This document shows positions 1 to 45,825 of a stretch of DNA of 64,000 bases, one piece after another. Where the stretch lies: positions 16,623,903 through 16,687,902 of the forward strand of contig CM082577.2 of the NCBI GenBank assembly GCA_040954595.2. The letters are read 5' to 3'. The position numbers and the translations under genes are program-made. Origin of the DNA: Balanoglossus misakiensis. Lineage: Eukaryota; Animalia; Hemichordata. The notes under the pieces were generated by a model, which saw only the letters and a list, made by a program, of their open reading frames with translations, did no database searches and was not told where the DNA came from. Within the stretch, counting starts at the first letter, position 1. Every line of letters starts with the position of its first letter.

Positions 1-2702
1 AAGTCACATGAAAAGTTGTAGCGGATTGGTCAATTTCTGGTTTATAGTGTTATGTTGGCCAGAACCTCGGATAAAAATCGTGAGGCCAGCTCGCAGACAG
101 TACAGTTGGTCGATTAATGCAGTCGGGTCCCCTGCCTCGGATGGTGTGAGATTCCCTCCAAATCTCAAATAATTCGATTATTGCTTTTTGCTATTACATA
201 TTATAATTAGTTTTATCGTTATATGCTAAACATTTTATATTTGCATAGATATGCTGATTATAACAATTATGTGCCCAATTATAAGCAGGTAAAATATCAG
301 GAAGATTTAGCGCAGAATTTTTCAAAGCTTTGTGAATTTAGCGGTGAATTAATAGCAGCTTTATGATAAGAAGCTGAATAATTTGTTGCCAGCCCGAATA
401 CTTTAAAATTCTAGAATATCTAGGACTTATCACCTCTTCGGTGGTAAATGCTCTGATGTGATAAGGTTAGGCCTCGCGAGCGAATCCGTGAGCTTCTTCT
501 AAAAAACAAAATTAATTTTTGGGGGGATGTTTAGCTTTTGCTTCAATTGGGCTCTTTGAGTGACGTTTATTGATCCGTTATTGATCGTACATTTCCTGTA
601 ATTTGCATTTGCATCACCACCACCTGGTATGTACTATAAAAGTCCCTCAAATTTATGCCACGCGGTTCTTCGATTCATTTCGTTACGCATAATCGTGCGA
701 TTCCGTTGTGGCAGTTATATGGTCCGTAGAAGACGGTGATTTTGGAGGCCTACTCCTCTCTGTTTGACTGTGTGACTTTCCTGTGAATGTTATACCAGCA
801 TTTGTAAATATTCATAAGCTCGAACTGGACATTTACATTGTAACACCGTACAAACTCTGCTAAATGCATAAAAACTCATTGAATCCGTTTTTGATGCGGA
901 CAAAATACGATAATTACATTTTTCGTGAACAAGGAATTTAGTGTTGAACTTCAATTATTTACTGCAATTTTGTTTGTACGACGGGGTTTTCTTTGTAATC
1001 GTTCCCCATGTGTGTCTATATTTGTGGAATAAATACTGGCTGCATACTGGAAATATTGAGTGCTGTACGTTCCCTGGCCCGGAAGTGACGTGTGAATATG
1101 AGCGACCTCCATTGGAGAGAACCCTTGGTCACATTCTATACGATTGATCAGGCGAGCTTCCATACCTGGAGGGTTAAATAAAAGAATTGTGCAAAATTAA
1201 TTATATGTCGGAATAACACATACATCATGGTAATAAAAGACGATAGTCACTCTTAAATGTTTCGTAGCATAATCAAGAACTTAAAACAAACTGCAATTCT
1301 ACGGACCCGCAAAATTTCCTGACGGACCAATCACCCAAAACCTACTTGGAGGTGGTGAAACCACGACGCATTGAACTTAAAAAGAGAAAAACCCAGAGGA
1401 AATTCCTGCAGACTCGTGTATCCCAAGACATCCTCGTTCACTTCCTTGGTGTGAAAAACCCGCAGATTGAACCATGACATACGGGTTCAAATTAGCTTTT
1501 TTCAAAGCAGTCTTTATCAGTCTCATGGTGGCAAGGGATGTGTCCGGATCGTTCAGTCACATGTATTTGTCGCAATTCAGTTGTGGGCACAGATGCAATA
1601 TTTAACGAAATTTATCTCAAAATGGAGCGCGGTGACCATGCGATTATATTTGACTCAGCTATGTGTAAAATTTCGTGAAAATGGCAATAGTAGAAGTTTG
1701 ATTTTTAGAAATTATCAATGCAATCCTATGGAAAGAGACACATGCGCACTGTTTACCAATGTGCGCGCAGATTTACATTTTGACACCTCGGGCGTATTAT
1801 GAATAACCATTCAGCACACGGTTATCTGGGACAGTGTCTGTGATGAGGCACAAGGACTTGTTTTTGAGCACCCTTCTCAAACCGTAAAATGCAAAGCCTA
1901 AGTTTCACTGCTATATCAGAGAGATTTACGAAGGGGGTATTTTAAAATGTATTAAAAATTTCAATTGCCAACTTCGAGATAATGCGGCTCGCTAATAGGC
2001 CTATAAGAACAATGAAGATAACTGAAGCGAGCAACTTGAGTAGGCAGACCTGTGGCAAATGTTAACATACTTTAGAACCTCATGATACTATGAAAGCAAA
2101 CCTTTTTGCATGGTCTTGTATAACCTAAGGTCAAAGTGGAATAATACAAACTGTGAGACCTTCTTATTTGTCGAAGCGGATTATATTTATACTATTCAAT
2201 TACCCAAGAATATTATGTATTATGAGGCATTCTACCCAATACACGGTGGTCTCAATTGAAACGTAATACGCTGGGAAATGTTCTTTTTAAGATAGTGAAT
2301 AGTGTTTCATCGGTTCCCACTAAGATACTCTTACCTGAACAAATGTACGCTTTACACAATTCTACACTAAATGTGTGTTGCTTGGCTACGTTTGGATACC
2401 CAAAGTAATTTTCTTTCTGTGTACAAGGTGGTATGACCGTCGGTGACAGACAAAAACACATAATAGCCCTCAAAACCTTCCAAGCCTTGCAATATTAAAA
2501 TGTGCTGCGTGGCATTTTGAAAACAAAGAAAAAAACTAGATTCACTTGTTTGATATCACCAGACTTGCCGACGTCACCCCAAGTGTGAGACGCTCCTCGA
2601 AAGTGAAGCACTGTGATAGAATGGAATGGAACGAAACTGAAGTTATTTCGCTTACGAGATGAAAAACAGTAAAGTAGCACCATTTAGTGATGAGGTAAGA
2701 GG

Positions 2703-2957
2703 AAAGCCTCTACAAAACAATAGAAAGCCACTATAAAGCAATCACTTTTAAAAATGCCGAGTAAATCGAGAGGTTGAAATCAGGGTGTAGATATCGAAGT
2801 TCGTAATTCGATTTTCGAAATTCGAATTACGAACAGGGTCTCAAGTGTTTACCAATAGTGTGCTCTTTTACTGGAATGCTAGGGAGCTAGCCACGAACTG
2901 TTGCTACATCATAACATGTGTGACCGTCTTGACATCAACGGAAAGCGTTACCATTGG
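2703..2957 (+). repeat. Left terminal inverted repeat
   Basis: Inverted copy of 14836-15090; contains the internal palindrome gttcgtaattcgattttcgaaattcgaattacgaac (~2798-2833). Confidence 0.9.
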
Positions 2958-4403
2958 AGATCCATTATTTTGTGGCGTTAAACCAGCGCGGGTAACTTTC
3001 CCGCCATACGTATTACACTGTTGTGAACTCTTAGCCAACATGTTCGCTCAAGAAAGAGGATGGAATTTTGGCGCGTACAAATAAAAGAAAGCGAGACGAC
3101 GCGACGTACCGTCCTGAGTGGGTGGTGCTTTCAATAGATCAATGCAGAGAAAAATGAGGTGAACTATTGGATATCGGGGGGGGGGGGGATAGAAAATTAA
3201 CAGATGTTTTCAGGGGGCGAGTACAAGTGGGTTCCAGTTAGCCTCGGGTGAAAAGAAGGAGAAAAAGATATCAAGGAAGCATGATTATCGTGCATCATGA
3301 TGATGCACGAAAAACGATAGAATTACCAGTAAATAACAGCAATAATAATAATACGGAAAGTACGAATTGCCGGCAATGAATTACCACCATCTTTTTAGTA
3401 GAGATATGAAGGAACCCCCCCCCCCCAAACCAATAACCCATGTCCGAAACCGGATACAAGATTATCCACTCCTTTATTGGCAACATACGAGAATTGTACT
3501 GCCACTGTTTCTTTCAAGAACTTTTAATCGATAGGTTTGCAGTCATTTTAATATCACTACAGGAATATGGAACATCCACACTCTGGTTAAACAAGGCACT
3601 TCCTACGGCAAAATCAGCAGCCTGTTAACTGCCCGATACCCAAACATGAGCACAGGTGGCTGTCATTGGTTATCCCTAAGAACGAGCACGAAGTGCGAGA
3701 AGGTCTGAAACGACTTTCGGACACAGTTCAATAAAACGTAACGAAAAAAAAAAAAAATCAATTTTGAGCGACCAAATACATACCCAGAACGATAAAATAT
3801 TCTACTGTGCATTTAATCGCCACCTTCATTAGGTTCCTTATCAGCACTAGCGTGAGTATTTCCCCAAAACTAACAACTGGGACAAAATGTACAAATGCTA
3901 CACAGATCGCCGCCATCTTGAACTACCATATCATCATACTGCGCATGCGTAAGCGTTTACGCATTCACGTTAATTTATTCACGATCTACGTTCTAAAGAT
4001 GGAGGCCATGGAAGAGGCTGTAGTGAACGGACACAATGTCATCATTCTCGGCCAGGCAGGGACTGGTAAAACCCATGCATGTGATAAAAAAATTAGCCAA
4101 AAAAATCAAAGGCAAATATACTATGACAGCTACAACAGGAATTGCAGCCAGTCTCCTGCCTGGTGGGCAAACGATACATCATTTCCTTGGCCTTATATGG
4201 ATGGGCGATTCACTAACACAGAACTCGTTGGAAAGATCAATCACGATACCGAAATGTGTCGTCTAAAAGACAACATATTAAACACCGACGTTTTGTTTAT
4301 TGATGAAATATCGATGTTGTCAGCTAAGACGTTTACACAGGTACGTAAAAAAGTCAAATCAATTTCAAAAAATTCCCAAACAAAACTAAATTGTTTCCCT
4401 GTT

Positions 4404-4593
<190 letters not shown>

Positions 4594-6418
4594 ACATGTA
4601 TAGAAAGAGAGAGAGGAGGAATTCTAATTCAAGAAACTCCCAATGAATCTAATTCTAAAAGAAACTATCTTTGTGTGTAAACATTGTTACTTTTGATATA
4701 TATTTTTATATTTTTTCTATATTTTTGTACATTCGCTTACTGTCATTAGTATTTAATATAAATTTGTTGTTTTAATATTTTTTTCTAGATTGAAACTGTG
4801 TGTCGGCTAGTGAAAGGTGTTAACCTTCCCTTTGGAGGAATTCAAATCGTACTGAGTGGAGACTTTAATCAGTTGAAGCCTGTGCCAAATGTTAGGTACA
4901 ACGACCCAGGATCATTGTGTATAGATGCTGCACAGTTCAGTGTGTTGATTCCTCATCATTTTGTACTTACAAAAGTACACAGACAGACTGAACGTGAGTT
5001 TATATAAAGGCCACTGGTCCATTTTTTTATTAAGAAAACATACGAACAATTTACATTGGGCAATGCATTACCGATTTATCAACTTAATTGTCATTTGTTT
5101 CATTTGTACAGCTGATCTGATTGAGGCAGTACACCTCTGCTGTCCAGGACGGATTTCAGATAGTGTAACTAAGTTACTAACTCGTCTGAGTAGAAAACTG
5201 CCACCTGGACCGATGGCAATGGAAGGTATGTATTGTGTATACACAAGATGATGAAATATTCACATTGCAATATTGTATTTAATATATATATGTAATTTTC
5301 AGTCTAATACAGTCTGTTCACTGTTTTCATGTAATTTTCACAGCCTAGCTTATACAGTGTGTTCATTGTGTTCGTGTCCATATGAGTTCAATCCTTGTTA
5401 GCCTTGTTTACATAAAAGTTGAAGGGTTTTGCAACTGACAATCCTGCATTAGACTTTCTCCCTCTGGATATTGAAGTCTGTCCTAGTATTACAGCATTTA
5501 CAGATGTGCAGTATGTGGCATAGTTTGGATGCGTTAAAGTTCCATTAAGTAATCCCCTTATTTGGCAAAAGTGGTTCTCTATCACATCTGAATCGAACCT
5601 TGCTGGTACTACATGACTTCCAGGATAAGATGATAGGTGTTTGTCACACACAGCCAAGAATCCTAAAATCAAGGAATCTAGGTCATCTAAGCATTCAGTT
5701 GATGGCAGTTTTCTTGATCGTTTTACCTGCGCTAGTGTACTCTCAAGTGAAGTAACTTGACTTCGCCATTTCAGGAACCAGTTATGTACATCTTTCAATA
5801 CTTCAAGTCTCCCATCAGTCATTGATGTTACAGGTCTTCTGTCACGAAATATAGAAATGAGTTGAGTGGTTTGTTTCAGGAAAGCAATAGTGCCATCTAA
5901 GTGGGTACCATCATCTAGGCTTGACTGGTAGGTCTTCATTAAATGTAGCATTTCACCATTCAGCATGTCTTCTGCTAAATGGTTTCGCATTTTTTCAGCA
6001 TTGTTTGGAGCTAGATGTGTGTCTGTTATTTTGTGGTATATGGGTCGGCTATTCACTTCCCGGTCCCAGATCACAGCACTCTGTAAATGGTCCCAAAGTA
6101 TTTCATTCCCTTGATAGGTCAGTACTCTTGTGTGTTTGCCCTCCTCATGGCCACTGCTCAATACACTATTTCTCAGTTTCTTTACATCATGAGAAAAATC
6201 TTGAACATGAATGATATCTGTACTTGGGTCTATCAAATTTGGGCTTGTGTATTTTGATTCTAGAGGGGAGCCATTGAAGTTGGACTTGATGAATTAACGG
6301 TTTTCTTCTCCGCCATCTTGCATGATGAAGTCAGTGGTGAAGGACCAGTCATGTAACTTTGCAATGATATCCCATAAAATTATGTGTAGTTCAGATGACT
6401 TAATTCCACACGTAGGAT

Positions 6419-9050
6419 CAATCAATCAAAACAAACATTTATAAAGCGCCAGAATCAATAACAATGTTATTTCCAAAGGCGCTGAAAGTATAACATCAGT
6501 GTTCGTAGGCTTTGAGAAATAGAAATGTCTTGAGTTTTTGTTTGAAAATGTTGAGACTAGAAGCGTGTTGAATGTCAGATGGCAGAGAATTCCAAAGTTG
6601 TGGCGCGACAACGGAAAAGGCACGTCCACCATATGTTTTGAGTCTGTACTTTGGTACACACAACTGGTTCCTTGAGCTGGAGCGCAGAGCACGACTAGGC
6701 TTATATGGCTTGATCAGATCCTGAATGTAGACTGGGGCAAGACGGTTGAGAGCCTTGTACGTTAGTAGTAGAATTTTGTAGTCGAGTCTGAGTCGAACTG
6801 GCAACCAATGGAGACTATGAAGAACTGGTGATATGTGGTTTGATTTCCTCGTGCGGGTAATGATTCTGGCTGCTGTATTTTGTGCTTTTTGAAGTAGATT
6901 GATACTGGATTCGGAAAGTCCGTACAGCAATGCATTGCAGTAATCCAGTTTAGATGACAAAACGGCATGTATTACTGTGAGACAAGTTTCCTTACTGAGA
7001 TATCTTCTGATGGATCCAATTCGACGTAAGTTGGCATACATCGACTGACAGGTTATTTGAATATGCTTGTGAAACATGTGAGTATTGTCGAAGGTAACTC
7101 CAATGTTGCGGGCAGATTTAACTGGTTGTATTTTACTTGAGCCAATGGTGATACTGTCGATAGGAACTGGAGAATGGTTAAATTTTGAACGGATGAGAAT
7201 AACTTCTGTTTTGGAGTCGTTGAGTTGCAACATGTTTTCCGTCATCCAGTGCTTGATGTCACAGATACCGGCCTCGATGGAACTGACAGCGGTTGATGAA
7301 TCATTTTGGGAGAAGGACAGGTATAATTGATTGTCATCTGCATATTGGTGAAATTCCAGGTCATGTTGTCGAATAAGTTTCCCTAGTGGAGAGATGTATA
7401 TGGTGAACAAAAGTGGTCCGAGGACTGACCCTTGTGGTACGCCACACTGAAGAGGACGGGGTTTACTGGTGACATTTCCAATAAGTACTGACTGATGTCT
7501 GTCCATGAGATACGATTCGAACCATTTGAGGGCGACATCTGTAATGCCAAGGTCCGAGAGCCGGTTTAACAGTAAGCTGTGGTCAATGGTGTCAAATGCA
7601 GCTGAAAGATCCAAAAGGACAAGTATGACACACTTTCCGGAGTCGAGAGACATGCAAATGTCGTCATGAACTTTCAGGAGAGCGGTTTCAGTACTGTGGT
7701 ATTGTCTGTATGCAGATTGTAGTGGTTCCAATAGTGAGTTAGCGGTGAGATAAGTGGTGAGTTGAGTGGCAATAACTTTTTCCAGGACTTTAGAGAGGAA
7801 TGGTAGATTTGAGACTGGACGGTAATTCTTTAGGATGTTAATGTCCAGAGAAGCCTTCTTGAGTAACCGGGGGGACAACGGCAGACTTGAATGCTGTGGG
7901 TACTTGTCCAGACTGAAGAGAGAGGTTTATTGTCGCAGTTATGTCTTGAAGTAGTGTATCCAGGCATTTCTTCAGTATCGAAGTTGGAAGTGGATCAAGG
8001 CAACATGATTTGGTAGGTGACTGCATGATGAGAGTTTTTATATCTTCTGCTTTTGCTTGGTTGAATGATGAAAATATGGTCGTAGTATTGGTTTCTGTAT
8101 TGATGATCTGTGGGATGTAATTAGTGGAGTTCAGGTTGTCACGAATAATCTTGATCTTGTTTATAAAATAGTCACTGAAACGTTCTGTGAGTTCACCCGG
8201 TGTAGTATGGTCAGGAAGAGATTGTGAATTCTTGGTACAAAGTGTAGAAACTAGTTTGAACAGTGATCGCTGGTTATTGGCATTCTCAGATATGAGGTCG
8301 GAATAGTAGTCACGTTTGGCCTGGCGTATTAATTTGGTCACGTGAAGACACTGTTCTTTGTAGATTTGGCGGTGGATTTCCAGCTTGGTGTTACGCCATT
8401 TACGCTCGGCAGATCTTCTATCCGTCTTTGCTTGTTTAATAGTAGCATTATACCATCTGGTGTCTGGACGAACAGTGACAGTGCGTTTCTTTACTGGTGC
8501 ATGTATATCAAGAAGAGCAGACAGTTTTGAATCATAGGTCGATATGGCTTTATGAATATTTGATGGCAGGTGAAGAAAGTCGGGAATGGATGCAACATCA
8601 TTGATGAAATCACTCATTGGGATAGCAGATATGCATCGATGTGTGACTTGGCGTCTTTCAAGCGGTGGTTTCTGAAATACCAGCCTTGCATGAATTGGAA
8701 AGTGATCTGAAAGACTGTGGCAATCGATGGATATTGCTTTGATGACTTTTTCAGAATTAGTAATTATCAGGTCGAGGGTGTGGCCTTTTACATGTGTTGA
8801 GTCGCTTATCCATTGCTTTAAACCAAATGAGTCGATGAGATCTTTGAACTTCACAGCTGTAGCATTGTGCGGATCATCCAGATGCAAGTTGAAGTCGCCA
8901 ACAATGAACAGGTTGCCTGTATTTGGAACAAGCTTTTCAAGTGTATTTCCAAACTCCGTTAGGAATTGCGATGTTGTAAATTTGTTTTTGTTATTCGGGG
9001 GTGGGCGATAGACGATGAGCAGTTTCAGAGAAATTCCGTTGTGCTGTACA
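6419..9050 (-). mobile_element. 5'-truncated L2/CR1-group LINE (partial APE endonuclease + RT) inserted into the P transposase
   Basis: ORFs 7838-9121 (IVYRPP, GDFNLH, GHTLDLI, SDHF) and 6496-7878 (NYRPVSNL, LLDLSAAFDTIDH, GVPQGSVLGP, YADD), with one frameshift near 7870. (TTGA)n 3' tail at 6419-6428. AGGAT is duplicated at 6414-6418 and 9051-9055; removing the insert restores transposase CHYP|TCGIKSSELH. Confidence 0.93.
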
Positions 9051-12000
9051 AGGATAATGACATATGGGAAAGCGAAAGCCAGTATATCCCAGGAATGTAA
9101 ATTGGATAGCTTCTGTCGCAAGTTTGCGTGTTACTTTCCCCTCTTTCAAGATTTGGAGGTTAAAGGCCTCTTCTCCAATATCCACCCATCCTATAAGCTT
9201 GGGTTGTCCACCCCTCATTGACAAAACAAGATCTTGTTGTACCTTTGTTTCATCGTGGATAAGACCACCAGCCCAGCCATGTTTTGGAATGTTGGCCTCC
9301 TTTGCTGCTTTGTACATCCATTCAAAGACTTTATCATCAATCCCAGGTGTTTTGTGGAACCATATTCTTGTATCGTGTCAGTAGTCTGCCAGATGGCAAA
9401 ATTAACATGTTACTATCTCGTAAATCATGGTAAGTCTTGGGACTTCTCACCCAAATATTTAAACATAAACTTATGATTTCTTTTTTCCATTGCCGTTGGG
9501 TAGGTGTTTTGCAGCGTACAGCATCGTATTGGCTTTGGAGCAGTAACTTCATTTGCTCTGATGCATCTGAAAATATCAGATTTAATATAGAACTGAGGTC
9601 TTGGTGGTCTTCTTCATCAAGTGTTAATTCTTCCTCTGTTTCTGGGGAAGTATCCAGTGAATCATCACTCTTTTGGTTCAAGTTCAGTTGACATCTAAGC
9701 TGACAGTTTCGGCAAGTTTCTGTAAAGCCATACCAGCTCAGTACTTGATCACAACTATTGTGTCGAAACATCTTCTGAAGGGTAATTTTCATTACCTTTA
9801 ACACTAATTTGTTCGACTGTGCATTTATGGAGATAGTTCTTGGGATCTTTAATTTTGTTCAAGTAATTAGCTGCAGCAACACCCTTACAAATCTTAATTG
9901 TCTCCACCACAGACACAATGTCAGCAACTGTCATCTTGTTTAAAGTGGCTAGGTCTGAATCAATACCAATACTACTCAAGTCAATGGCCTTGCCTCTGAC
10001 TTGTAGTTCCCAGTGATATTTATACACAAGAACTTGTTTTAAGATCATATTACCATTGCTTATGATATCTGTAGGAACAGCAAACTGAATGTAATCATTG
10101 TGACATCTTGGTAAAATAACCACTGTATCAGGCATATGGTGTCTGGGATCATTCAAGGAAAGACTGTCAATACAGGTATCTTGTGTGGACACATGCTTCC
10201 ATTCTATACCTCGGTACACCATCACCGTCTTTCTTGTTTTGGAATCGTGCTTAGTATGTTTAGTCATATTGGGAAATAGCTTTTTGAGTGTTCTTCCATG
10301 CACAGATGGTTTTAGGTCAGTGCTTAAAGCATTTTACATTTACCCCATAGCACATCTTGGCGGATAGATCCTGTTTGCGACTCCTTAATATTATCTTTCA
10401 ACCTGTTGAAACAAAAAAGGAAATCAACAGTAAGTATGGTGATGTGAATAAATAATATAGCACACAATTGATTAAATAAATTATTAATTCAAAGTTTTTG
10501 TTTTCCCTTGCAGGTAGAGCAAAGGCATACAAATCTGTAGATTTTGGTGATCCAAAACTGTTAGCAACATGTTCAGCCCCAAAGACTCTACATCTGAATG
10601 TGAGTGCCCCTGTCATTCTGGTTGCTAACATATCAGACAACTTATTCAATGGTCTCCAAGGAGAAGTTGTTGATTTACAGGACGACAAAGTGTCTGTGAG
10701 GTTTCCTACAATTGGAAGATGTATACCATAAGTAGACACAATTTCCAGGTCTACAGTCCTGAAAAAAGATGTGCGGTTGCTAACAGAAAGCAATTTCCAA
10801 TGAAGTTGGCATTTGCCATGACTGTTCATCGGTCACAGGGTCTAACGATTGACAAGGTCGAAGTAGACTGCTGGAACATGACACAGAAGGGACAGATCGG
10901 TGTTGCAATAGGTAGGGCAAAAGTGAAGAAAAGTCTTCGGGTCCTCAACTTCAAGCCAGGTTTTATTTACCCCCAGCCACCTGCAATAACCGAGTTTTAT
11001 AGCAGAGGAAAAGTAACAGCCAAAGATGATCTGTCATGCTGCAGAAGGGAAATTATTCCTGGAACAGTTGATGTTATTGTTGAGAATAAGGAAGAAGACT
11101 TGGAAGATGTACAACCACCCACTGCAGATGAGTTGGACGAACTTCTAGAGGATGTTGATGACCAAGATGGAATCACTGGTACTGACGAACCCTCTATGTC
11201 TAGTAGTAGTGATGGTGGGGGTGGTGATTTTGGTGCTAAGGTTGAAGAAACCTGCCTGCCAGATGATGTCATACCTGACATCGATTTTTACAGGGTTAAC
11301 AGCTATGAAAACCCACTTACTGATGAACAGCGTGATATGAATGCACAACGTTCATACCTTGGTAATGAGAGCCAGAAAGTAAAGGAGTTCTGCCAGATAG
11401 TGTGGCGAAAAATAATCGAAGCATTTGAGAGCTGTATTCCATCCTCCAATCAGAAAGTGAACAACAAACACACAACAGCATTATATAAAGAATTCACCAA
11501 GCTTCTACAGAGTGATGGCTACAAGAAGTGTGTTGGTGTGTTGTTCAATGTGAAGATACCATCATCGCAGCATTTCAGGACCACATTTGTTATGACAAGA
11601 CACATCAGAGAGAGAGTAATCTGTAAGAGTGTGGAGAAAATAAAGGCGAAGGCTGTTGAAAAATGCAGTAAAGGTGGAAAGAAATTCAAAGGTTCATCAG
11701 CTGGACGAGGCAAAATACGATACATTGGTGGTTGGTGCCTGGCCAAACTAAGGTATCAGAAGAAAAAGGGTGTCATCAGAAAACTGTACAAGAAGAAGTG
11801 TGAAAAGCAAATGGAAAGACTTGACACAGAAATAAAGGTATTGGAACAACTGATAGACACAGAAGACAACTTGTTATCAACTTCTGAAGAACAAGACACA
11901 CTAACAGAGACAAGAAGAAAACAATATGCCAGGGGAGGGCTCACCAACATTACAGACAGTGCTTTCCATTTCTTTGAACACTTAGATACAGAAGTGAGAC

Positions 12001-12298
12001 AGTTAGAGAACATGGACAATGTGGCCCTGTATGGTCCAACTCTATACCAATTCATCACAAAGAAAATTAAGAATGATAAAGCTATGGTGGACCAGTGGAT
12101 GTCTCTATTCAACAAGCCTGGCGCAACAGATTCTACTGATGGTGAAGAAACACACGGAATTGACAGTACCAGTAGTGCTGATGACAAAAGTATCGAAAAA
12201 GAAGACAATGGTGACAAGATTGATAATGGTTATGATGTTGGTGTACGAGAAACGGATATTGATGGAGGTGGAAAACATGGTGATGAATTGTCTGGTGG

Positions 12299-12331
12299 TG
12301 ATGGTGATGATGATGATGATAATGGGGATGG

Positions 12332-12362
<31 letters not shown>

Positions 12363-12460
12363 AATGATAATGATGATGATGATGATGATGATAATGATGA
12401 TGATGATGATGATGATGATGAAGATGACGAAGATGATGATGATGACGAAGATGATGATGT

Positions 12461-12491
<31 letters not shown>
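12299..12491 (+). repeat. (GAT)n coding trinucleotide repeat giving a poly-Asp tract
   Basis: In frame within ORF 10719-13097; roughly 60 mostly Asp residues. Confidence 0.95.
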
Positions 12492-13799
12492 ATATCTGGT
12501 CGACAAGACAGACATGATGTTAATGATTTAGGATGTTATGATCAAAAGAATGTTGACAGCGATACATCTGACAATGATACTATAGTTATAGCTTTGTATG
12601 AAGAGGTTATTAATAGGTATGTTAAAATGTCATGTGCATCATTCAGAAAAGAATATTTGAGACGTGTGAAAACAAAAAAAGAGGAAGCACACAGAAAGCA
12701 GGTTAAAATCCGTAAAGGTGGCCCAAGACTCCCAAAGAATACAAGCAGAGTATCCACCATTCCTAAAACCTTTGGTTTCAGTGATATATTAGCAGACAAA
12801 AGTGTTGGGAAAACTAAATCACATACTACACTTCAGACAGAACTTGCATCAAATCCACATTATTTCAACACAAAATCAATCACTAAAAGCCAGTTACAAT
12901 TGTTGTGCAAGTGTTACGAATTAACAATGTCTTCAAAGTTGACAAAATCCCATATAGGTTCTCAGCTAAGGGAGAAAATCATGTCCTCTACAAAAATGAA
13001 CAAACCAGATGTGTTGGGTGGTAAGATTTTATGTTTCAAATACATGTGCAGGTGTTTTCCATGCACAAATTGTTTTAAATTGTTATTTATTTTTTGATAA
13101 AATTGTTGTTAGGTTTGACCACATTTGAGTTAACTTAATGTAGAAGGATAAGGAAAGAATACAGTTCAATCTGTTATGTATTATTACTTTAAGTTGCCAA
13201 ACGGTAAGATTTACCACCTGCATGACATTTCTGCTAACTGCATTATTGTTTTTCAATGTGACATACAATTTGCATGTATCAGTGGCATGGGCATGCTCAG
13301 TTTTGTTTATTTTTTGTAAATGCTGTTTTCAACTTTACTATCAAGTTACAAATAACCATATTCAAATAGAAAGTAATGTTATACATGTACTTTTTTAAGT
13401 TGTTTGTTTTACATACATTGCTAATATTAATCATACATTAAAATATATTTATTCATAATCTCTTGCAGAAATTCAACACAGTTCAGAGCCAACAGGTAGT
13501 AACACAACAGTCTCTCAAGTTCATGCGTCAACATCAGCACCATATACAAAACGAAGACGTGTGGTGAAATGGCCTTGTGGAAAATGTGGAGATTGCTGTC
13601 TGGCCAACAGTATTTGTTGTGACAAGTGTGACAAGTGGTTCCACTACGCTTGTGTTAATATCAACGAAGATGTTATCGATTCTTTAGAAGATGAAACATG
13701 GTATTGCTCCAACTGTCTAAAATGAGAACATTTTGAGGGATTTAAAATGCTTCTTAGAACTCTACTAGACATGGTGAAATGTGTGATCATGTAAACATG

Positions 13800-13806
13800 T
13801 GCGTGC

Positions 13807-13838
<32 letters not shown>

Positions 13839-13854
13839 GTGAGTGTGTGTGTGT
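13800..13854. repeat. (GT)n microsatellite
   Basis: Imperfect GT run next to the predicted transposase splice donor. Confidence 0.9.
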
Positions 13855-14562
13855 TACCTATGGTCAATATAAGACATCCAGATTGGTTGTTTCTTCCACT
13901 AGATACATGGATGCTAGGTCGAAAACATTCCCACTCAAAACGTTCAATTGCACAGTGGTGACCGGTGTTTGCAATTGAAATATTTCATCGCATATACGTA
14001 TACGGATCGCCATCCCGACCCCTTGTAGGCCTACCTCCTCAGTTCGACTGACACTGGCCCTGTCGCTGTCTGATCAGACCTTGCACAACTAATTAAATAT
14101 TTATGAAATATAAAGTTTTAACCAATGAGGTACCGGGATAGGATGCAAAACGTTAACGACACTGATTTATTAGTGTGGTTGCTAAGAAGCGCTAATGACA
14201 CTGATCTATTTTAGTGACGTTGCTATATCACAGCGTCCGCTTCGATACCAAAAATCGGTTTAAATGTAGCAATATGTCAACTTTAAGAATGTGCGCGCAC
14301 TAAGAGCGAATCTGTCTCTTTCAATGGTAATATATGGAAAAACCGCTTCATTTTTACACATAGTTCTGTCAAAAGAAATTAATTTTACTGATCGCATAAA
14401 ACTATATGGTCGCCGTGCTTAGCACGTTGACACCGGTGTTTTATTTCCAAAAATGGTATAGTGTTATTGCTGTCAGTATAAACGGCGCTGCGAAATAAAG
14501 CCCCGCAAATAAATAAATAAATAAATGTAAAATGCGGGGGCGCTCCATATCGTGCATGACAG

Positions 14563-14820
14563 GGGGGGGGGGGGTTACTCCCATAGGAAGGTGTCAGTAT
14601 GGGTAAGTGCCACTCGGAAGTGTTACTTTTTCACGGAAAAATCTCCAAACGTGGGTTGTCTTTTCATCCGAAAATCATCATGTACATGGTAAATAAACAT
14701 TTTTTGCTCCGATTTTGTCCCGAACAACGGTTCTGTTTTGACAAAATACATGGGTAGATATGTTTTCAATTCGGGTCGGGTCGCACACCCCCGTACGAAA
14801 ATAGTGGGAGCCTCCCCCTC
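14563..14820. mobile_element. Small degenerate MITE-like insertion with G-rich/C-rich ends
   Basis: Starts ggggg-ttactcccata and ends tagtgggagcctccccc (imperfect inverted ends); lies just inside the right TIR and has no counterpart at the left end. Confidence 0.4.
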
Positions 14821-14835
14821 TGAAAAATGGTTACG

Positions 14836-15090
14836 CCATTGGTTACGCTTTCCTTCGATATCAAGACGGTCACACATGTTATGATGTAGCAACAGTTCGT
14901 GGCTAGCTCCCTAGCTTTCCAGTAAAAGAGCACAGTATTGGTAAACACTTGAGACCCTGTTCGTAATTCGAATTTCGAAAATCGAATTACGAACTTCGAT
15001 ATCAACACCCTTATTTCAACCTCTCGATTTACTCGGCATTTTTAAAAGTGATTGCTTTATAGTGGCTTTATATTGTTTTGTAGAGGCTTG
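14836..15090 (-). repeat. Right terminal inverted repeat
   Basis: Inverted copy of 2703-2957. Confidence 0.9.
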
Positions 15091-16412
15091 CGATTCAAAA
15101 AAACGCCAAAAAGCGAATTCGTTGGTCTCAATATAGTTTAGAATTTCACTTGGCCGCACGGATCGCGGTATCAATGAAGCAACTTCAAAAAGGCCACGTA
15201 AATTTCATAGGTTACATCAAATGAATTCAATTATAGCAAAATAGTCTCTATGCTAGTAATATCAAACATATCTAGCAGGGGATGTGTGCTTTTTGAGCTG
15301 TTTTCGTGACTTTTGTTTGGTATGAAAAGCTGTTCATGTTGTTTGACTACTTGAAACATACTGAAATACTCGTAAACCATACCCAATCTCTGCATCGTAT
15401 ATAAGACAAGAGTGAACATTCGGTGAAACAATTTATGGTCACTACCCAGTTGTTCAATGTTGAGACAACATTTGTCTATATACAGTATTGTATAATGTTT
15501 AGACCACAATGGGCTTGTGATAAGACCTCAGAGTGTGGATTCCTTTCATGTTATAGCTGTGACGTTCATGTCTTGTTCCCAGTGTTCAGAGAGACCTTGC
15601 TTACAAATATGTCATATCAAGCAGTCTTCACACAGAGTGGAGGTTTTCGTGCAGACGACTTTGATGTTTCCTAAAATCTAAAGTGGAAAATTTGCAACGA
15701 AGCCGCATTGACAATCTTGGAGAACCAATATGGCGGTATGCATGCATGAATGACGTAACCTGTCCCTGCCAGGTCCTGTCCCTGGCCTGTACCCTGGCTT
15801 GTCCTCTTCCGTGCCATACCAAGGGTTGTATTGTTAGGGTTTCGAGACCAGAGGGGTCTCGAAACCCTCTTGAAATCGTGTTGTTTTTTATTATTATTAT
15901 TATTATTATTCTTCTTCCCACTTTTAAAAACAGCCGCTATTCGAAGACCGTTGCACCCAATGACTTGAAATTTGGCTCATAGGTAAAACTCAAAGCAAGT
16001 AATTTTCTGATCATGTCACTATGGCAACAGGTCACATGACGTGGCAGCCATCTTGGATTTAAACTTTTAAATTGGTCTAATTTGCATAAAAAATGAAGAA
16101 TCCAAATTCTGTTCAGAAACTTTGTGGACCATATGGCCAGGGTCCTCTATGCCAAATTTCAATGTCTAAGTCCTTGCCGATTTTGAGGAGATGATTTTTA
16201 AAGCATTATTTTTCATATTTTCCATGACCATTGGACCCAGCCATTGGCCTATACTTTCCATGGTTAAGCAATGGCCCCCTAGGATTTTAGACTTATGCCC
16301 AATATCTCAACATCCGCTGGGCTGATCAGCTTCAAATTTTGTGTGCAGCTAGCCTACCTTCAGACAATCAGTTCCAACTGGAAAAAATAATATGGAAAAT
16401 CGACCGATTTTT

Positions 16413-19400
16413 TTAGGGCACAAGCCCAGCAGGCTTGTGCCCTATTGTTTTTACTGGAGTTTTTCTTCTTCTTCTTCTTGTGCCGTTTTTTTCGTCAAGT
16501 ACATCTTGAAAACGGCTGAACCTACAAATCTCAAACTTGGCACAATGGTGCAGGCCAATAAGAGCATGAGCTGTACCCTTGTGAATGTTTAATAAGTCAT
16601 GTGACCTGATGACCATATTTGGGCAAAATTTTCAAATCGGCCTTATTTGCATATGCATGGAGATATCAAAATTCTTTTAGCAACTTTTGCTGACCATGGG
16701 GTCATTGTCCTACATGCCAAATTTCAAGGCCATAGGCCATGTCAATTTTGAGAAGAAGATTTTTAAGTATTATTTTTCATATTTTTCGCCCAAGCTATGG
16801 GCCTATACGTTACATAGTAAAGCTATGACCACATATTATTTTGGATAAATATGCATACATATCTCAAAATCATCTCAAACTTTGGTGTGCAGCTAGCCTA
16901 GCATTTGTCAATCATTTTAAGCGAAAAAAAAATAATATGAAAAATCGACCGATTTTTTTATATTAATGTTTTAAATTAAATTTATACCTTTTTACTTAAA
17001 GGTATACGGTCACCTCCAATTTACATATCGCCATATATAGTTGAAATGGCGTATTTGAGTGTTCTAAAGAACGCTTTATTTTCGCGTGTGCCACCCACTG
17101 AAAATCTGTGATTGGTTAGATCTCGATTTACCATGGTAACTGTGGCTAAATTTGTATAGGTGACCGTATACCTTTAATATACCTCTATAGTTAAGCTATG
17201 TACACGTCTTAGTGTGGAATTCTGGTCTGTGCAACGGTCCTGTACAGTGACTGTCTATTGGGCAGTGAGCACAATGGGACCAAAATAACAGGCAAAATTT
17301 CGGGCTCACCTGTAACACCTGCTTAACTAATGAATTATGTGCATACCTAATTCTGGGCTAACTAATAAGCCTAGAGGTTTTGTTCTTGTGGGACATGGAC
17401 CAGTATGAGGTCAAAATTTCTTGCCCAAATTTTGGGTGACCTCAGGTGACCTTTCACCTACTTTACCATATCTTGGCATCCAGAGCAGGTACAGACTTGG
17501 TGTTTGAAGGGTTGGGACTAAAATTGAAAAGCAAAAATGGGGGTCACCTGTGACACCTGCATATCTCATTAATTATGTGCATACCTAATTCAAGGCTAAC
17601 CAATAGGGCTATAGGTTTGGTTTTTGTTGAACATGGACCGGTATAGGGTCAAAATTTCTTGCCCAAATTTTGTATGACCTCAGGTGACCTTTGACCTACT
17701 TTACCATATCTTGGCATCCAGAGCAGGTACAGACTTGGTGTTTGAAGGGTTGGGACTAAAATTGAAAAGCAAAAATGGGGGTCACCTGTGACACCTGCAT
17801 ATCTCATTAATTATGTGCATACCTAATTCAAGGCTAACCAATAGGGCTATAGGTTTGGTTTTTGTTGAACATGGACCGGTATAGGGTCAAAATTTCTTGC
17901 CCAAATTTTGTATGACCTCAGGTGACCTTTGACCTACTTTACCATATCTTGGCATCCAGAGCAGGTACAGACTTGGCGTTTGGAGGGTTGGGACTAAAAT
18001 TGAAAAGGCAAAATTGGGGGTCACCTGTGACACCTGCCTACATCATTAATTATGTGCATACCTAATTCCAGGCTAACCAATAGGGCTATAGGTTTGGTTT
18101 TTGTTGAACATGGACCAGTATAGGGTCAACATTTCTTGCCCAAATTTTGCATGAACTCAGGTGACCTTTGACCTACTTTACCATATCTTGGCATCCAGAG
18201 CAGATATGCTTATTGCTATGTTGCTATGTGCTATGTTGGCTTGGGCCCGCTATTGCTGCTTGCAGCTATATTTCTTCTTCTTCTTCTTCTTCTTGTGCCG
18301 TTTTTTTCGTCAAGTAGATCTTGAAATCGGCTGAACCTACAAATCTGAAATTTGGCACAATGGTGCATGCCTATGAGAGCTTGAGCTGTACCCTTGTGAA
18401 TGTTTAATTAGTCATGTGACCTGATGACCATATATGGGCAAAATTTTCAAATCGGCCTTATTTGCATATGCATGAAGATATCAAAATTCTTTTAGCAACT
18501 TTTGTGGACCATGTGGTCAGGGTTCTACATGCCAAATGTCAGGGCCATAGGCCATGTCAATTTTGAGAAGAAGATTTTTAAGTATTATTTTTCATATTTT
18601 TCACCCAAGCCATGGGCCTATACTTTACATAGTACAGCTATGACCACATATTATTTTGGATAAATATGCATACATATCTCAAAATCTGTTAGGCCGATCA
18701 TCTCCAACTTTGCTGTGCAGCTAGCCTAGCATTTGTCAATCATTTTAAGCGAAAAAAAATAATATGAAAAATCGACCGATTTTTAAAAAAAAAATTTTAA
18801 AATTAAATTTATACCTTTACTTATACCTCTATAGTTAAGCTATGTACACGTCTTAGTGTGGAATTCTGGTCTGTGCAATAGTCCTGTACAGTGACTGTCT
18901 ATTGGTGTGTGAGCACAATGGCACCAAAATAAAAGGCACAATTTTAGGCTCACCTGTAACACCTGCTTAACTCATTTATTATGTGCATACCTAATTCTGG
19001 GCTAACTAAGAGGGCTAGAAGTTTTGTTCTTGTGGGACATGGACCAGTATTGGGTCAAAATTTCTTGCCCAAATTTTGGGTGACCTCAGGTGACCTTTGA
19101 CCTACTTTCCTATATCTCGGCATCCAAAGCAGGTACAGACTTGGCGTTTGGAGGGTTGGGACTAAAATTGAAAAGCCAAATTGGGGGTCACCTGTGACAC
19201 CTGCATATCTCATTAATTATGTGCATACCTAATTCCAGGGTAACCAATAGGGCTATAGGTTTGGTTTTTGTTGAACATGGACCAGTATAGGGTAAAGATT
19301 TCTTGCCCAAATTTTGCATGACCTCAGGTGACCTTTGACCTACTTTACCAGATCTTGGCATCCAGAGCAGATACAGAATTGGCGTTTGGATGGTTTGGAC

Positions 19401-19679
19401 TAAAATTGAAAAGCCAAATTGGGGGGTCACCTGTGACACCTGCCTACCTCATTAATTATGTGCATACCTAATTCCAGGCTAACCAATAGGGCTATAGGTT
19501 TGGTTTTTGATGAACATGGACCAGTATAGGGTCAAAATTTCTCGCCCAAATTTTGCATGACCTCAGGTGACCTTTGACCTACTTTTCCATATCTTGGCAT
19601 CCAGAGCAGATATGCTTATTGCTATGTTGCTATGTGCTATGTTGGCTTGGGCCCGCCATTGCTGCTTGCAGCTATATTT
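16413..19679 (+). mobile_element. Related HINE-like element nested inside the first, present as a head-to-tail dimer (16413-18273, 18274-19679), with ~238 bp satellite units
   Basis: 5' hairpin agggcacaagcc...ggcttgtgccct, then (CTT)n. The 3' end ggcttgggccc...gctgcttgcagctatattt occurs at ~18239-18273 and again at ~19644-19679. Inserted in a T-run (cgattttttt|atattaatttt). Confidence 0.75.
17000..17173. mobile_element. Kolobok-type MITE with TTAA target-site duplication
   Basis: ttaa|aggtatacggtcacct ... aggtgaccgtatacct|ttaa (16 bp perfect TIR); absent from the paralogous site at ~18810-18830. Confidence 0.9.
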
Positions 19680-22060
19680 ATATTAATTTTTTTATGAAAT
19701 CTATACCTATACTTATTCCACTATACTTAAGCTATGGCCACATAGTTTTGTAGAATTCTGGTCGGTGCAATAGTCTGCAGCATAGGACCAAAATAAGAAG
19801 CCAAATTTAAGGCTCACCTGTGACACCTGCTTAACTCATTAATTATGTGCATACCTAATTCCAGGTAAACCAATAGGGCTACAGGTCTGGTTTTTGTCGG
19901 ACATGGACCAGTATGGGGTCAAATTTGTTTCCAAAATTTTGGGTGACCTTGGGTGACCTTTGACCTACTTTCCCATATCTCAGCATCCAGAGCAGGTACT
20001 GCTCAGGTGTTTGGGTGGATGGGACCAAAATAAGAAGCCAAATTTAAGGCTCACCTGTGACACCTGCTCAACTCATTAATTATGTGCATACCTAATTCCA
20101 GGCAAACCAATAGGGCTACAGGTCTGGTTTTTGTCGGACATGGACCAGTATGGGGTCAAATTTTTTCCCCAAATTTTGGGTGACCTTGGGTGACCTTTGA
20201 CCTACTTTCCCATATCTCAGCATCCAGAGCAGGTACAGCTCAGGTGTTTGGGTGGATGGGACCAAAATAAGAAGCCAAATTTAAGGCTCACCTGTGACAC
20301 CTGCTCAACTCATTAACTATGTGCATACCTAATTCCAGACAAACCAATAGGGCTACAGGTCTGGTTTTTGTCGGACATGGACCAGTATGGGGTCAAATTT
20401 TCTCCCCAAATTTTGGGTGACCTTGGGTGACCTTTGACCTACTTTCGCATATCTCAGCATCCAGAGCAGATACAGCTTAGGTGTTTGGGTGGATGGGACC
20501 AAAATAAGAAGCCAAATTTAAGGCTCACCTGTGACACCTGCTTAACTCATTAACTATGTGCATACCTAATTCCAGGCAAACCAATAGGGCTACAGGTCTG
20601 GTTTTTGTCGGACATGGACCAGTATGGGGTCAAATTTTCTCCCAAAATTTTGGGTGACCTTGGGTGACCTTTGACCTACTTTCGCATACCTCAGCATCCA
20701 GAGCAGGTACAGCTTAGGTGTTTGGGTGGATGGGACCAAAATTAGAAGCCAAATTTAAGGCTCACCTGTGACACCTGCTTAACTCATTAACTATGTGCAT
20801 ACCTAATTCCAGGCAAACCAATAGGGCTACAGGTCTGGTTTTTGTCGGACATGGACCAGTATGGGGACAATTTTTTTTCCCAAACTTTGGATGTCCTTGG
20901 GTGACCTTTGACCTACTTTCACATATCTCGGCATCCAGAGCAGGTACAGCTTAGGTGTTTGGGTGGACGGGACCAAAATAAGAAGCCAAATTTTAGAGTC
21001 ACCTGTGACACCTGCCTAACTCATTAATTATGTGCATACCTAATTCCAGGCAAACCAGTAGGGCTACAGGTCTGGTTTTTGTTTGACATGGACAAGTATA
21101 GCGTAAACATTTTCTGCTCATATTAAGCGTGACCTCACGTGACCTTTGACCTACTTTTCCACATCTCAGCATCCACAGCACATACACCCTTGGCATTTGG
21201 AGTGATAGAACAACTAATGCAGTAATTAAATATGCACAAATCTATCTCCAGGCGAACCAATAGGGCTAGTAGTGTCTCGAAACCCGCTTATTGCTGTTCA
21301 CAGCTATATTTTAAATCTTTTTTGAATTTTCATAATTTTCTGGTGTCTGGAAGTACTCTTGTGGTGTTTTTGACATCTGTGATTGCCATGCTTATTTTTT
21401 TTTGAATTCATATTTGAATTTTCGTTATTCTAGGCATGTCTTGGTTGTATTTGGTTATCTGATGAAGCTGATTCACTACACATACAGAAGAAGTCCCTCT
21501 TCAAGCAAATTATGTCTTTGCACGCGCATCTGTCACTTTTTGAACGTGGACATAAAGTTCTTTATTAAGAACGATGATAGCTTAATAGGTCTTGAGCACC
21601 TTGTGAAAAATCACATCAAATTCATTTTTTACCACTCACAAGTGTTCATTCAGTAATCCAACATGACAACACTTTTATGGCAAAGGAACATTTTACGTTA
21701 TATGTCAAGCGTATTGGTTTATTTAACACATGTATGGTGCAAATACATTCAGCAGGCAAAGTTGAATCATGACGTCATTATCAATTCTGTAACAAAACGT
21801 TTGCCCCACATAAAACATATAGTAGTAGTTTGTCATTTTATAAATTAAATCAATTATGAAGTCAGTTACACGACGCAGATATGCCCGTTTTCATTTTTTA
21901 AATTTAAGATACATCTATTCTAGCACCTGAATTACATCGTTTGCTTAATCACAGACCAAAACCTTTTCAGCGATCATAATGATCAATGGGTTTGTATTGC
22001 CAGATTAAGAGTGAACAACATGTCGAAAATCTTGATGAAATACACTTCATGAACTCTACT

Positions 22061-28000: not shown

Positions 28001-28478
28001 ATTTGATTTGTGAAACCCTGCACCCGATTTCTTCTTAACTACTAGTAAGCAGAATGAACTACGTGTGCTACAAAAGGAAGAATGTAATAAGGTCACAGAG
28101 GGTTCATGGAAGTGACCCACTTAAGTTTTCGATGAGACCAACAAGCTACTGGTATGTATTAAGTAATGTCATGAAAATGTGGCACCTAAGGGAACTTCTC
28201 AAACCAGAGAAAAAGACATCTAAGGAACACAGGGGACCATGTTGCAGAATATTAGGCCTATACTTCACCTTGTACTGCCAATCAACTTCAGACAGTAAAG
28301 TCCGACTCTGCTTTTCCGGAACATGGATTTCCGGCTTTGTGTCTTCAGGGCCTGCTTCTAGCAGCAGAACACTGGTCTTCTTGTCTTCTGATAACCGGTT
28401 TGCGAGAACACAACCCGCGCTTCCAGCACCAATTATAACGTAATCGTACTCGTCATCAGGTCGTTTCATGGCGGCCAT
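22061..28478 (-). CDS. GMC oxidoreductase (glucose/choline dehydrogenase-like), about 15 exons, ~550 aa, apparently intact
   Basis: Approximate exons: 28270-28478 ([21 protein letters not shown]), 27392-27457, 27079-27224 ([26 protein letters not shown]), 26783-26881, 26324-26374, 26112-26238, 25567-25683 ([14 protein letters not shown]), 25156-25249 ([15 protein letters not shown]), 24246-24299 (DH), 23959-24006, 23554-23649 (PDIQ), 23033-23222 (LLHPKSVG), 22890-22944, 22408-22577 ([10 protein letters not shown]), 22061-22191 ([15 protein letters not shown]). Several junctions checked for phase. Confidence 0.9.
24585..25023. mobile_element. Intronic non-autonomous element with long asymmetric hairpins (Crypton-like architecture, tentative)
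   Basis: Inverted pair acctcatgctaa (24587) / ttagcatgaggt (24804); second long stem-loop 24825-25020 centred on ccctcggcctgcggcctcggg. Confidence 0.55.
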
Positions 28479-28629
28479 GTTGAATGCCGAGAATCAAACA
28501 ATCGGCGAACTCGCGCAATGACTACTATGTAAATGTATGGTCTCAGCCAATCAAGAACACGGAATAAAGCGTGGGGTGTAATAAAGTCCTTTATTGGCGA
28601 TGGCGAAGTTACACTACTAGTAAGAAACA

Positions 28630-33323: not shown

Positions 33324-34799
33324 CCTATCTCCTAGGGTAAACCAGCAAATGTAAACGAGCAAATTCTGTATATGCCTATTTTAACCAGATTTGCCCTCTT
33401 TCCATTACTCAGTCCAGTCTGTTTCACTGATTATCTGCATCACAGTGCCTCCCGTTGTTTCTCCGGTGTGTCTCTGTCTGTCTATCTTGTCCTGTCATCA
33501 TCTTCTGCATTTAAATTCAATAAAACTCACCCGTAACCCTCCATTGCCTTCGTATTCATCAGCTTCTGAATAACACGAACGCTCTATCGAATGAAAGGAA
33601 AACAGTTTAATCAGTAGAAGGGGTCGTTTGTTCAAAACCTATTTTTCATATGTATCTCGGTGAGCGTCAATTATCACTTTTAACAATGGAGATGGTGTTT
33701 CTGACGTTATGGCAAAAAACATCCATTTTTAAATCAAAAGCGTAAGTTTCCTTTGAAATGAGTCTAACTGTTATGAATATGTACCCTATAATCATAGCTT
33801 GAACGTCTTCTTGATCTTCCAAGTAATGGGGATTAATTATGGGATGGTCCAGTGGATTTTGACTGGCAAGTTTGATGTCGCCAACACTTTTGGGATGAAG
33901 AAGTCCTGGAAAGAAAAGTATCCCCTCTGTGGCATTCATGACATCATTGTCAGTATGCTCAAGAGCATTGCCAAAACTGGCAGGAAAAGTTGAAACAAAG
34001 GTATTGAAGATATTGAAAAAAAAATCATAACAAATTATATCACATGTACAGTACTGCAGTGATTATTTACGAAACTACATACAAACATACACACAGAATT
34101 CAGTTGACTTATAACCACATCATATTTCAACATGTGTTTGATATTGTTCGACATAAGTCAGTGTGTACATTTTTATTTGCTTTGGTTTTAAATCTTTATT
34201 AGTCAATTTGCAAGAGTACATTGTAGTGTAGCTGCCTCTCAGTTCATCAAAGATTCTTTATCCTGGTTTACATTCCGCATTTGAAACAACCTCAAAACCA
34301 ATTTGGTATATAAAGGGATGCTTTCATTTCCTTTTTTCTGCTTAGTTTCTAATGAAATATTTATGAAGTTAAATATTCGCAAAAAGCAACGACGTAGGCG
34401 ATACTCACTCCTCGCTGATGTTGTATTTTGTCTTTTCACGACAACCACCCCAGTAGTACGTCGGCACGTAGAGTAACTGTATGTCAGGCCAGGGAAGTTC
34501 TTCCTGTTTTGTTGATCAAAAATATAGGCGAAATGCAGTCAGTGTGTATACATTTTTAAAAGTTGCGCTCATCAAAGAGAACGTTATAAGGCACGCACAA
34601 AATGGGACAAACATGATAAAACGTGTTAGAGATACGGACTTTACAGATATCTGATACTTTTTTATAACAGCTTGCAAATTAGCCTATTTGAAATTTTGCA
34701 ATTAGCAATATAAGTCCAGGTTTGCAAAACAAAAATTACATTAAATAAATATATCAGTGTATCGAGAGAAGCATTGTAATGTCAAATTACTCCTCTGAG

Positions 34800-36050
34800 C
34801 TGTAGGCTTTCTGCTAGTGATGTCTTGATCAGACTGATCTGTGCACCAGAATCTAACCGTACATTGGCGGCCTACTGTCTACCTTGGTTACCAATCACGT
34901 TCACTAGAACGACTGGCAGTAGCGTCTCTTTGCTGTATATGGTTGCCACGCCAACAGTGTTGTTGTCTGACCTAGCTGCAGTGACAGATTTTTACCAGTA
35001 TGTAGCGGGGGATGGTGGAACAGGTTACATCGCATACCATTGTTCATTTCTTGACATTGACGGCGTCTAGTACAGGTTTTTGCACTGGGTTCTTACCGGC
35101 TTTCTTCAGACAGCTGTAACATGCATGACCATCTTTTATCATCTTCAACCGTTCATCCGGAGACATATACATCAACTTGCTACATTGGTCTACCCAGTGA
35201 TCGGAAGACTGGCATATCCAACACTTGTAATGCGGTGTAGCTTTGCTCTCTGATATGTAGTTGACTGCTGTCATTCCTGTATTTTGAGCTAGATTACGTA
35301 ATTGCGCAGTTGCTCTCATAAGTGCTTCCATAGTTGCAGGCTGGTTTTAAGTTTCTTGTAAGTGACACCAAACTTTTCGGTCATCAGCACTCATTTCTTT
35401 TTTCATCATTGCCAGAACATGATTATTGTCAATATCATGTGATATGACTACTTCTTTCAATACATTGTAACTGCATCTCACCAGATGTACCAATTCACAA
35501 AAGCTACCGTCTTCTTCATCTCTTAACGTCTTGAAGTTCACAATATCTTGCAATATAATATCCGCTACAAACCTTGAATCACCGTAGATCGAGTCAAGGT
35601 ATTCCCATGCAGCATCATAATCTGTGCCTAAGCCTTTGATCAGGTCAAGTGGTTTACCTTGCAAACAGGTGCGCAGCAGTGCAACAGCATCACGTTTACT
35701 GTATCTTTGTCAACCGTGTGCTTGAAATCAGCTCGAATGTGAAAAATTCTCGGACATCACCTGTAAACTTCGGAAGTTTTTGGCTTTTCCATTTTAAAAC
35801 TGCAAGACAGGTGGCGCTTAGCGGACAGTTCAGCATGTTGTACAATCACATAATCATCATGTCCAGTATTATCTGTTGCAGGGTTTGGGGTACTAACAAC
35901 ATTATTTTCAATCATTTCATCTGCACCATCATTCTCATTGATGTCTCAGCATTAGCATTCACTACATCACCAGTGTTCATTGTGACTTCTGTTTTCATGT
36001 AATCTATTGCTTGACTTTTCATACTTATGAATTTCTGTTGGCATTCTTAG
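34800..36050 (-). mobile_element. BEL/Pao LTR retrotransposon relic (gag + start of protease)
   Basis: LPKFTGDVREF near 35750-35780 (DUF1759-like), AWEYLDSIYG, knuckles CWICQSSDHWVDQC and CYSCLKK, LLPVVLVNV..LDSGAQISLI near 34825-34930; frameshifted. Confidence 0.8.
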
Positions 36051-45712: not shown

Positions 45713-45825
45713 AAGAATTACTCTAAAGGTACAATGGACTCAGACAGGTTTGTTAGGGCACAGCATATAACTCCAATTTTGTCTATGAGGCTCAATGACT
45801 TCCCCCTTTTTTAACCAAATACTCA

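Follow-up and report, generated by a model that had tools for sequence, protein, structure and literature searches.

When a transposase of the P-element type stops soon after its catalytic glutamate, where has its C-terminal domain (CTD) gone: was it lost, or does another protein now carry it? The question is raised by a 64,000-nucleotide stretch of the acorn worm Balanoglossus misakiensis (contig CM082577.2, positions 16,623,903 to 16,687,902 of the forward strand; “the window” hereafter), for which a sequence-only reading had proposed that the CTD was relocated onto a helicase encoded next to the transposase. What the window holds is a decayed P-type DNA transposon with two genes, a dead copy of an element that is widespread in marine invertebrates and kin to the Drosophila P element, and the proposed relocation is, overall, supported, with a predicted structural likeness present on the helicase and no further CTD exon found for the transposase; that the domain is supplied in trans and docks on the transpososome is what we infer from this arrangement. 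The features of the element are as follows (in L001, an intact relative, the two genes are nested in the same way).

2704..2957, + strand: left terminal inverted repeat, 254 nt, with a 36-nt imperfect palindrome inside at 2799-2834
3999..4340, + strand: Pif1 exon 1, Walker A to Walker B (three-frame translation, Pfam AAA_19/PIF1, tblastn with the L001 helicase)
4789..4993, + strand: Pif1 exon 2 (Pfam PIF1, E 8.9e-7)
5112..5225, + strand: Pif1 exon 3 (read by eye; donor position as in L001)
5388..10333, - strand: P-type DDE transposase core (tblastn with the L001 transposase; PF21787; 5' end approximate)
6417..9050, - strand: 5'-truncated non-LTR (long terminal repeat) retrotransposon inside the transposase (Pfam RVT_1 and Exo_endo_phos; short tandem-repeat tail)
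10514..13020, + strand: exon 4, with Pif1 2B and C-terminal motifs, linker, helical domain, CTD and SAP/HeH-like domain (frameshift near 10719-10728)
11322..11669, + strand: conserved helical domain, unclassified, ahead of the CTD
11685..12113, + strand: predicted P-transposase CTD, first part, the segment originally flagged (structural match to 6p5a_B)
12114..12566 (about), + strand: (GAT)n insertion within the CTD, rich in Asp and predicted to be disordered
12567..12677, + strand: predicted CTD, last long basic helix (model helix 433-466; conserved Lys/Arg columns; end of the 6p5a_B match)
12777..12995, + strand: small helical SAP/HeH/Rho-N-like domain (weak)
13469..13725, + strand: exon 5, with a PHD finger at 13576-13716 (Pfam PHD, E 1.4e-7)
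14836..15089, - strand: right terminal inverted repeat, 96% complementary to the left one

Both motifs on which the sequence-only reading relied are present in the + frame 10674-13097, at 11712 and 11913, past the last Pif1 motifs and ahead of the Asp-rich tract, and the frame that it took for the helicase is exon 4; the gene has five exons, and those with Walker A/B are at 3999-4993. When the predicted structure of the segment was compared with known ones, the P transposase CTD (6p5a_B) came at VIA rank 1 over the model range 139-469, and the model has the all-helical fold of that chain, including its basic terminal helix; the helicase segment is predicted to have the P transposase CTD fold. 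The domain is, however, larger than had been thought: the flagged positions 11690-12120 do belong to it, but it does not end at 12120, as the structural match runs over 11685-12677. The acidic tract likewise follows the two motifs as described, but it sits within the CTD, ahead of the last basic helix, its length being due to a (GAT)n expansion particular to the window copy, with a short linker at this place in the four closest homologs.

Against this assignment stands the Pfam check for the P-CTD family (Tnp_P_element_C) that the sequence-only reading had itself suggested, which gave no match and leaves the support structural; the family was found neither in 11 pieces of the window nor in the 95 of 152 homologs searched. 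PDB searches with the segment, by phmmer and by hidden Markov model (HMM), returned no P transposase (the best 60 of 218 matches in one of them being helicase and PHD), the ESM Atlas returned unnamed clusters only, at 0.89 or less, and hhalign found no similarity between segment and core. Foldseek gave nothing at E<=0.001 for either of the two models; its 627 candidates did include 6p5a_B, which took first place upon re-alignment. An additional transposase exon with a CTD of its own, which would have counted against the relocation, was found in neither of the two loci searched: the segment profile matches exon 4 only in the six frames of the window and the helicase frame alone in L001, with nothing on the transposase strand, and the segment HMM, run against 117 transposase relatives, strongly matches a single one (P0011, a Holothuria gene model).

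The transposase of the window is broken by frameshifts near 9800 and 9350, by a stop at 6294-6296 and by the inserted retrotransposon, which codes for an APE endonuclease and a reverse transcriptase (its boundaries were taken from tblastn with the L001 transposase) and which we take to be L2/CR1-like. The chain was said to end about 60 residues after the catalytic Glu, and it does: its stop at 5388-5390 comes 62 residues past the Glu aligned to Drosophila E531. A profile of 39 transposase relatives matches the Drosophila P transposase chain 6p5a_A (E 4.5e-11) with all of the triad residues D230, D303 and E531 aligned; in the GTP-binding insertion K385 and D528 match, K400 is replaced by Arg and V401 by Asn, and F443/D444/N447 fall outside the aligned stretches (the catalytic and GTP-binding residues of the Drosophila enzyme being those named in PMC7776569). 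PF21788 was detected in just a few of the relatives, no THAP domain was matched in the transposase, the N-terminus of which is RFX-like (PF02257 in L001), and a conserved basic motif follows the RNase H domain in the core.

How general is the early end? In PMC10824691 the Drosophila CTD is given as residues 566-751, so that the chain ends 220 residues after E531. Among the 117 relatives, 91 align across the catalytic Glu, and the tail after it counts 23-94 residues in 88, 118 and 159 in two and 800 in P0011. Many of the 91 are plain open-frame predictions, in which a spliced 3' exon would go unseen, but the set includes 17 named animal gene models, and all but one of these (16) stop 54-94 residues past the Glu. 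A local mutational truncation as the reason for the short transposase is ruled out, the short tail being family-wide. The named sources include bivalves, abalone, sea cucumbers, the acorn worm, Priapulus, Capitella and corals, and the family as a whole ranges over molluscs, echinoderms, hemichordates, priapulids, annelids and cnidarians.

The helicase gene consists of five + strand exons (splice sites read from the sequence; PIF1, Pif1 2B and PHD matches in Pfam), with the transposase gene nested antisense in its intron 3. The Pif1 core with Walker A/B and the 2B domain was identified through Pfam PIF1 and Pif1_2B, PDB Pif1 chains match it at E 3e-17, and it is disrupted in the window copy: exon 1 carries two compensating frameshifts, near 4078 and 4195, and the 3' end of exon 3 is ~20 codons short of the corresponding L001 exon, so that, with the frameshifts and the one stop already described, both genes are damaged. 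The match between the terminal repeats lengthens to 267 nt at 94.8% with blastn; the right terminus starts with CA, the left has A at the corresponding place, and a search up to 6 nt from both ends of this one decayed copy showed no target-site duplication of the 7-8 bp that mark the P superfamily, for which GTP dependence and a 17-nt staggered cut are further criteria. Among the 25 longest inverted pairs listed for positions 1-20000 there is no other long one outside microsatellites. Each terminal repeat contains, ~95 nt from its end, a 36-nt imperfect palindrome (2799-2834 and 14959-14994), which the RFX-like domain may bind.

The linkage of the two genes extends beyond the window. The segment is no chance find: 458 relatives match it at E<=0.001, the best 150 of them being listed. 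In a set of 152 without P0011, no protein carries a transposase core; the helicase C-half occurs in 64, and it is present in 46/46 of those with at least 250 residues upstream and in 56/57 at 200 residues. The CTD is strongly conserved on the helicase, and P0083 and P0109 are continuous Pif1-segment-PHD frames without a core. In L001 some 23 nt separate the stop of the transposase frame (789 amino acids, aa) from the helicase donor; the C-half of the helicase shares a 792-aa frame with the segment and the PHD finger. The core is antisense to the Pif1 gene in all four core-bearing loci fetched (the window, L001, L081 and L082); in the last two the helicase core stops at a splice donor facing the transposase, the host intron differs from that of the window and L001, and the 0.8-1.2 kb covered beyond the transposase start show no CTD, which neither confirms nor excludes the fusion. 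These two are intron-containing animal transposon DNA inside two bacterial metagenome-assembled genome records, apparently host contamination.

No segment match was found in 76 of 80 metagenome loci, L002-L004 have the segment and no core in the available DNA (<=1.3 kb upstream of the helicase exon), and no relatives were found among viral contigs. Five of 28 helicase-segment proteins (5/16 on contigs >=5 kb) lie on a contig of exactly the same size as the contig of one of the 117 transposases; one of these five contigs, of 5,522 nt, is nearly filled by the two frames, and one is chromosome-sized and weak. Identities co-vary over eight pairs (transposase-CTD 0.82, transposase-helicase 0.73, CTD-helicase 0.74), which shows co-inheritance, not contact. 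The exception is P0011, in which the core is joined to the C-half of the helicase and, with it, to the segment and the PHD finger. This model lacks Walker A/B and has most likely been mis-joined from a co-oriented copy; P0062, likewise modelled from that species, contains no core.

Could the relocated domain do something else? It might be only a DNA-binding appendage of an accessory helicase, with the core transposing alone, the conserved basic tail substituting for the CTD, and the helicase acting later, in gap repair or donor restoration, with no docking; the basic motif after the RNase H domain, the direct DNA binding by the CTD in the Drosophila structure (PMC7776569) and the lack of a CTD in the covered DNA of L081 and L082 all suit such a view, whereas the strand-transfer complex of Drosophila includes the CTD as a structural component (PMC7776569) and its being missing from 88/91 cores, yet strongly conserved on the helicase, is what complementation predicts, and we regard this as possible but rather unlikely. 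Distinctly less probable is that core and CTD are joined in cis in RNA, by alternative or trans-splicing, into a single core-(half helicase)-CTD protein, the split being only apparent: P0011 is a fusion of this kind, but its missing Walker A/B fits a mis-joined model, transposase and helicase run in opposite directions in the window and in L001, L081 and L082, the named gene models nearly all end close behind the Glu, and P0083 and P0109 run continuously from helicase to PHD without any core.

About as improbable, perhaps a little more so, is that the segment is an unrelated helical domain and its 6p5a_B match a chance helical-bundle likeness, the P lineage having simply lost its CTD; here the missing Pfam match stands on one side and the first rank of 6p5a_B on the other. 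We give hardly any credence to two unrelated elements, that is, to a short P element having landed by chance in an intron of a Pif1 gene, even though the host intron does differ between window/L001 and L081/L082 and the window is crowded with nested elements, as both genes lie inside one inverted-repeat pair with no rival of its kind among the 25 longest listed for positions 1-20000, their antisense pairing recurs in 4/4 core-bearing loci fetched, and their identities co-vary.

The reading we prefer, at a probability of roughly 60%, is that the core and the helicase-CTD protein form one heteromeric transpososome, in which the CTD docks the Pif1 motor, an enzyme of 5'-to-3' polarity, at the ends, while the PHD and SAP-like domains bias target choice. 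The core, for its part, would use its RFX-like winged helix to bind the transposon ends, and its DDE triad together with the GTP-binding insertion to cut. [quoted passage not shown] Docking would park the helicase at the transposon end, where it would most likely melt or re-pair the end strands or dismantle the strand-transfer complex, and the PHD and SAP-like domains would act on targets via chromatin. The stricter version, an obligate heteromer in which the core and its own CTD come from two opposite-strand genes and the CTD is a docking module through which a Pif1 motor and a histone reader become part of the transpososome, we favour only slightly; it possibly arose by one inversion of the core, and the layout of L081 and L082 hints, speculatively, that the core was turned round behind a helicase gene lying upstream, and that the CTD, left in place, came to be joined to the helicase by splicing.

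How the P-element DNA comes to its unusual arrangement was called unclear in a 2020 review (PMC7776569). A natural P relative in which a helicase is tied to the domain that grips the looped-out strand makes it testable how the ends are melted and re-paired and how the strand-transfer complex is disassembled. The natural split separates CTD function from catalysis and makes two-plasmid complementation possible, and intact elements such as L001 exist for experiments. If the preferred reading is true, it describes a route from a single-chain transposase to a two-subunit, chromatin-reading machine, and many bivalve and echinoderm genes annotated as “PIF1” or “PHD-type protein” are transposon parts.

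The remainder of the window contains the following.

16100-20000: array of a ~238-bp repeat, in two blocks with longer duplications
28146-28493 and 33667-34062, - strand: exons of a host FAD-dependent oxidoreductase gene, presumably GMC-like
35044-35709, - strand: DUF1759 fragment, which we assume to be BEL/Pao-like
39088-41982, + strand: YqaJ/viral alkaline exonuclease-like gene in several pieces, probably an accessory nuclease of a different DNA transposon
42976-43794, + strand: Ty3/Gypsy gag with a zinc knuckle
45799-47095, + strand: frame resembling, by eye, a Penelope reverse transcriptase/GIY-YIG protein (no Pfam match at 0.01)
48282-53500, - strand: decayed Helitron-like element with DUF6570, Helitron_like_N and PIF1 frames and a further upstream frame at 53006-53500
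57561-62185, - strand: three near-identical 102-aa frames at 2158-nt spacing, a large tandem repeat

Two-component transposases are familiar (Tn7 TnsA/B/C, IS21 IstA/IstB, MuA/MuB, RAG1/RAG2, PIF/Harbinger), and the likeness to them is functional, a catalytic subunit with a partner that has an ATPase or a PHD finger; here, in contrast, the partner is a superfamily 1 helicase predicted to carry the transposase's own structural domain. A search of titles and abstracts found no account of the element, Repbase and the supplements of transposable element libraries being outside its scope, and a database or such supplements may hold a name for the family. Helicase-bearing DDE transposons are known (AcademH, KolobokH and Kolobok-1_CCri), which are likewise cut-and-paste elements, Kolobok-1_CCri even having its helicase on the complementary strand, but the Kolobok helicases are RecQ and not Pif1, and the AcademH and Kolobok transposases belong to other superfamilies; the passages on such elements in PMC9587614 and PMC10045372, on which this comparison draws, mention neither a Pif1 nor a transposase domain moved to a helicase. 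Helitrons (Rep-Pif1) also have a Pif1-family helicase in their transposition protein, whereas here there are a DDE core and inverted repeats and no HUH/Rep domain is seen (Pfam matched no Helitron_like_N/Rep in full-length P0083 and P0109 or in the L001 frames); a term search of PMC8788227, on Pif1 in Helitrons, found no “P element”, “DDE” or “PHD”. With the Drosophila P transposase (6P5A/6PE2) and THAP9 the element shares the DDE triad, the D-x-x-H motif, K385/D528, the RNase H end, the CTD fold (predicted here, by likeness to the Drosophila chain) and terminal inverted repeats. It differs from them in that a second gene encodes the CTD, together with Pif1, SAP-like and PHD domains, and in having an RFX-like winged helix in place of THAP, inverted ends of 254 bp versus 31 bp, and two genes nested antisense over about 10 kb; in its working it would resemble a P element that carries a motor of its own. 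It has the catalytic residues and the inverted repeats of a P element and lacks the THAP domain and the single-chain CTD, and is thus a variant P lineage and not a canonical member.
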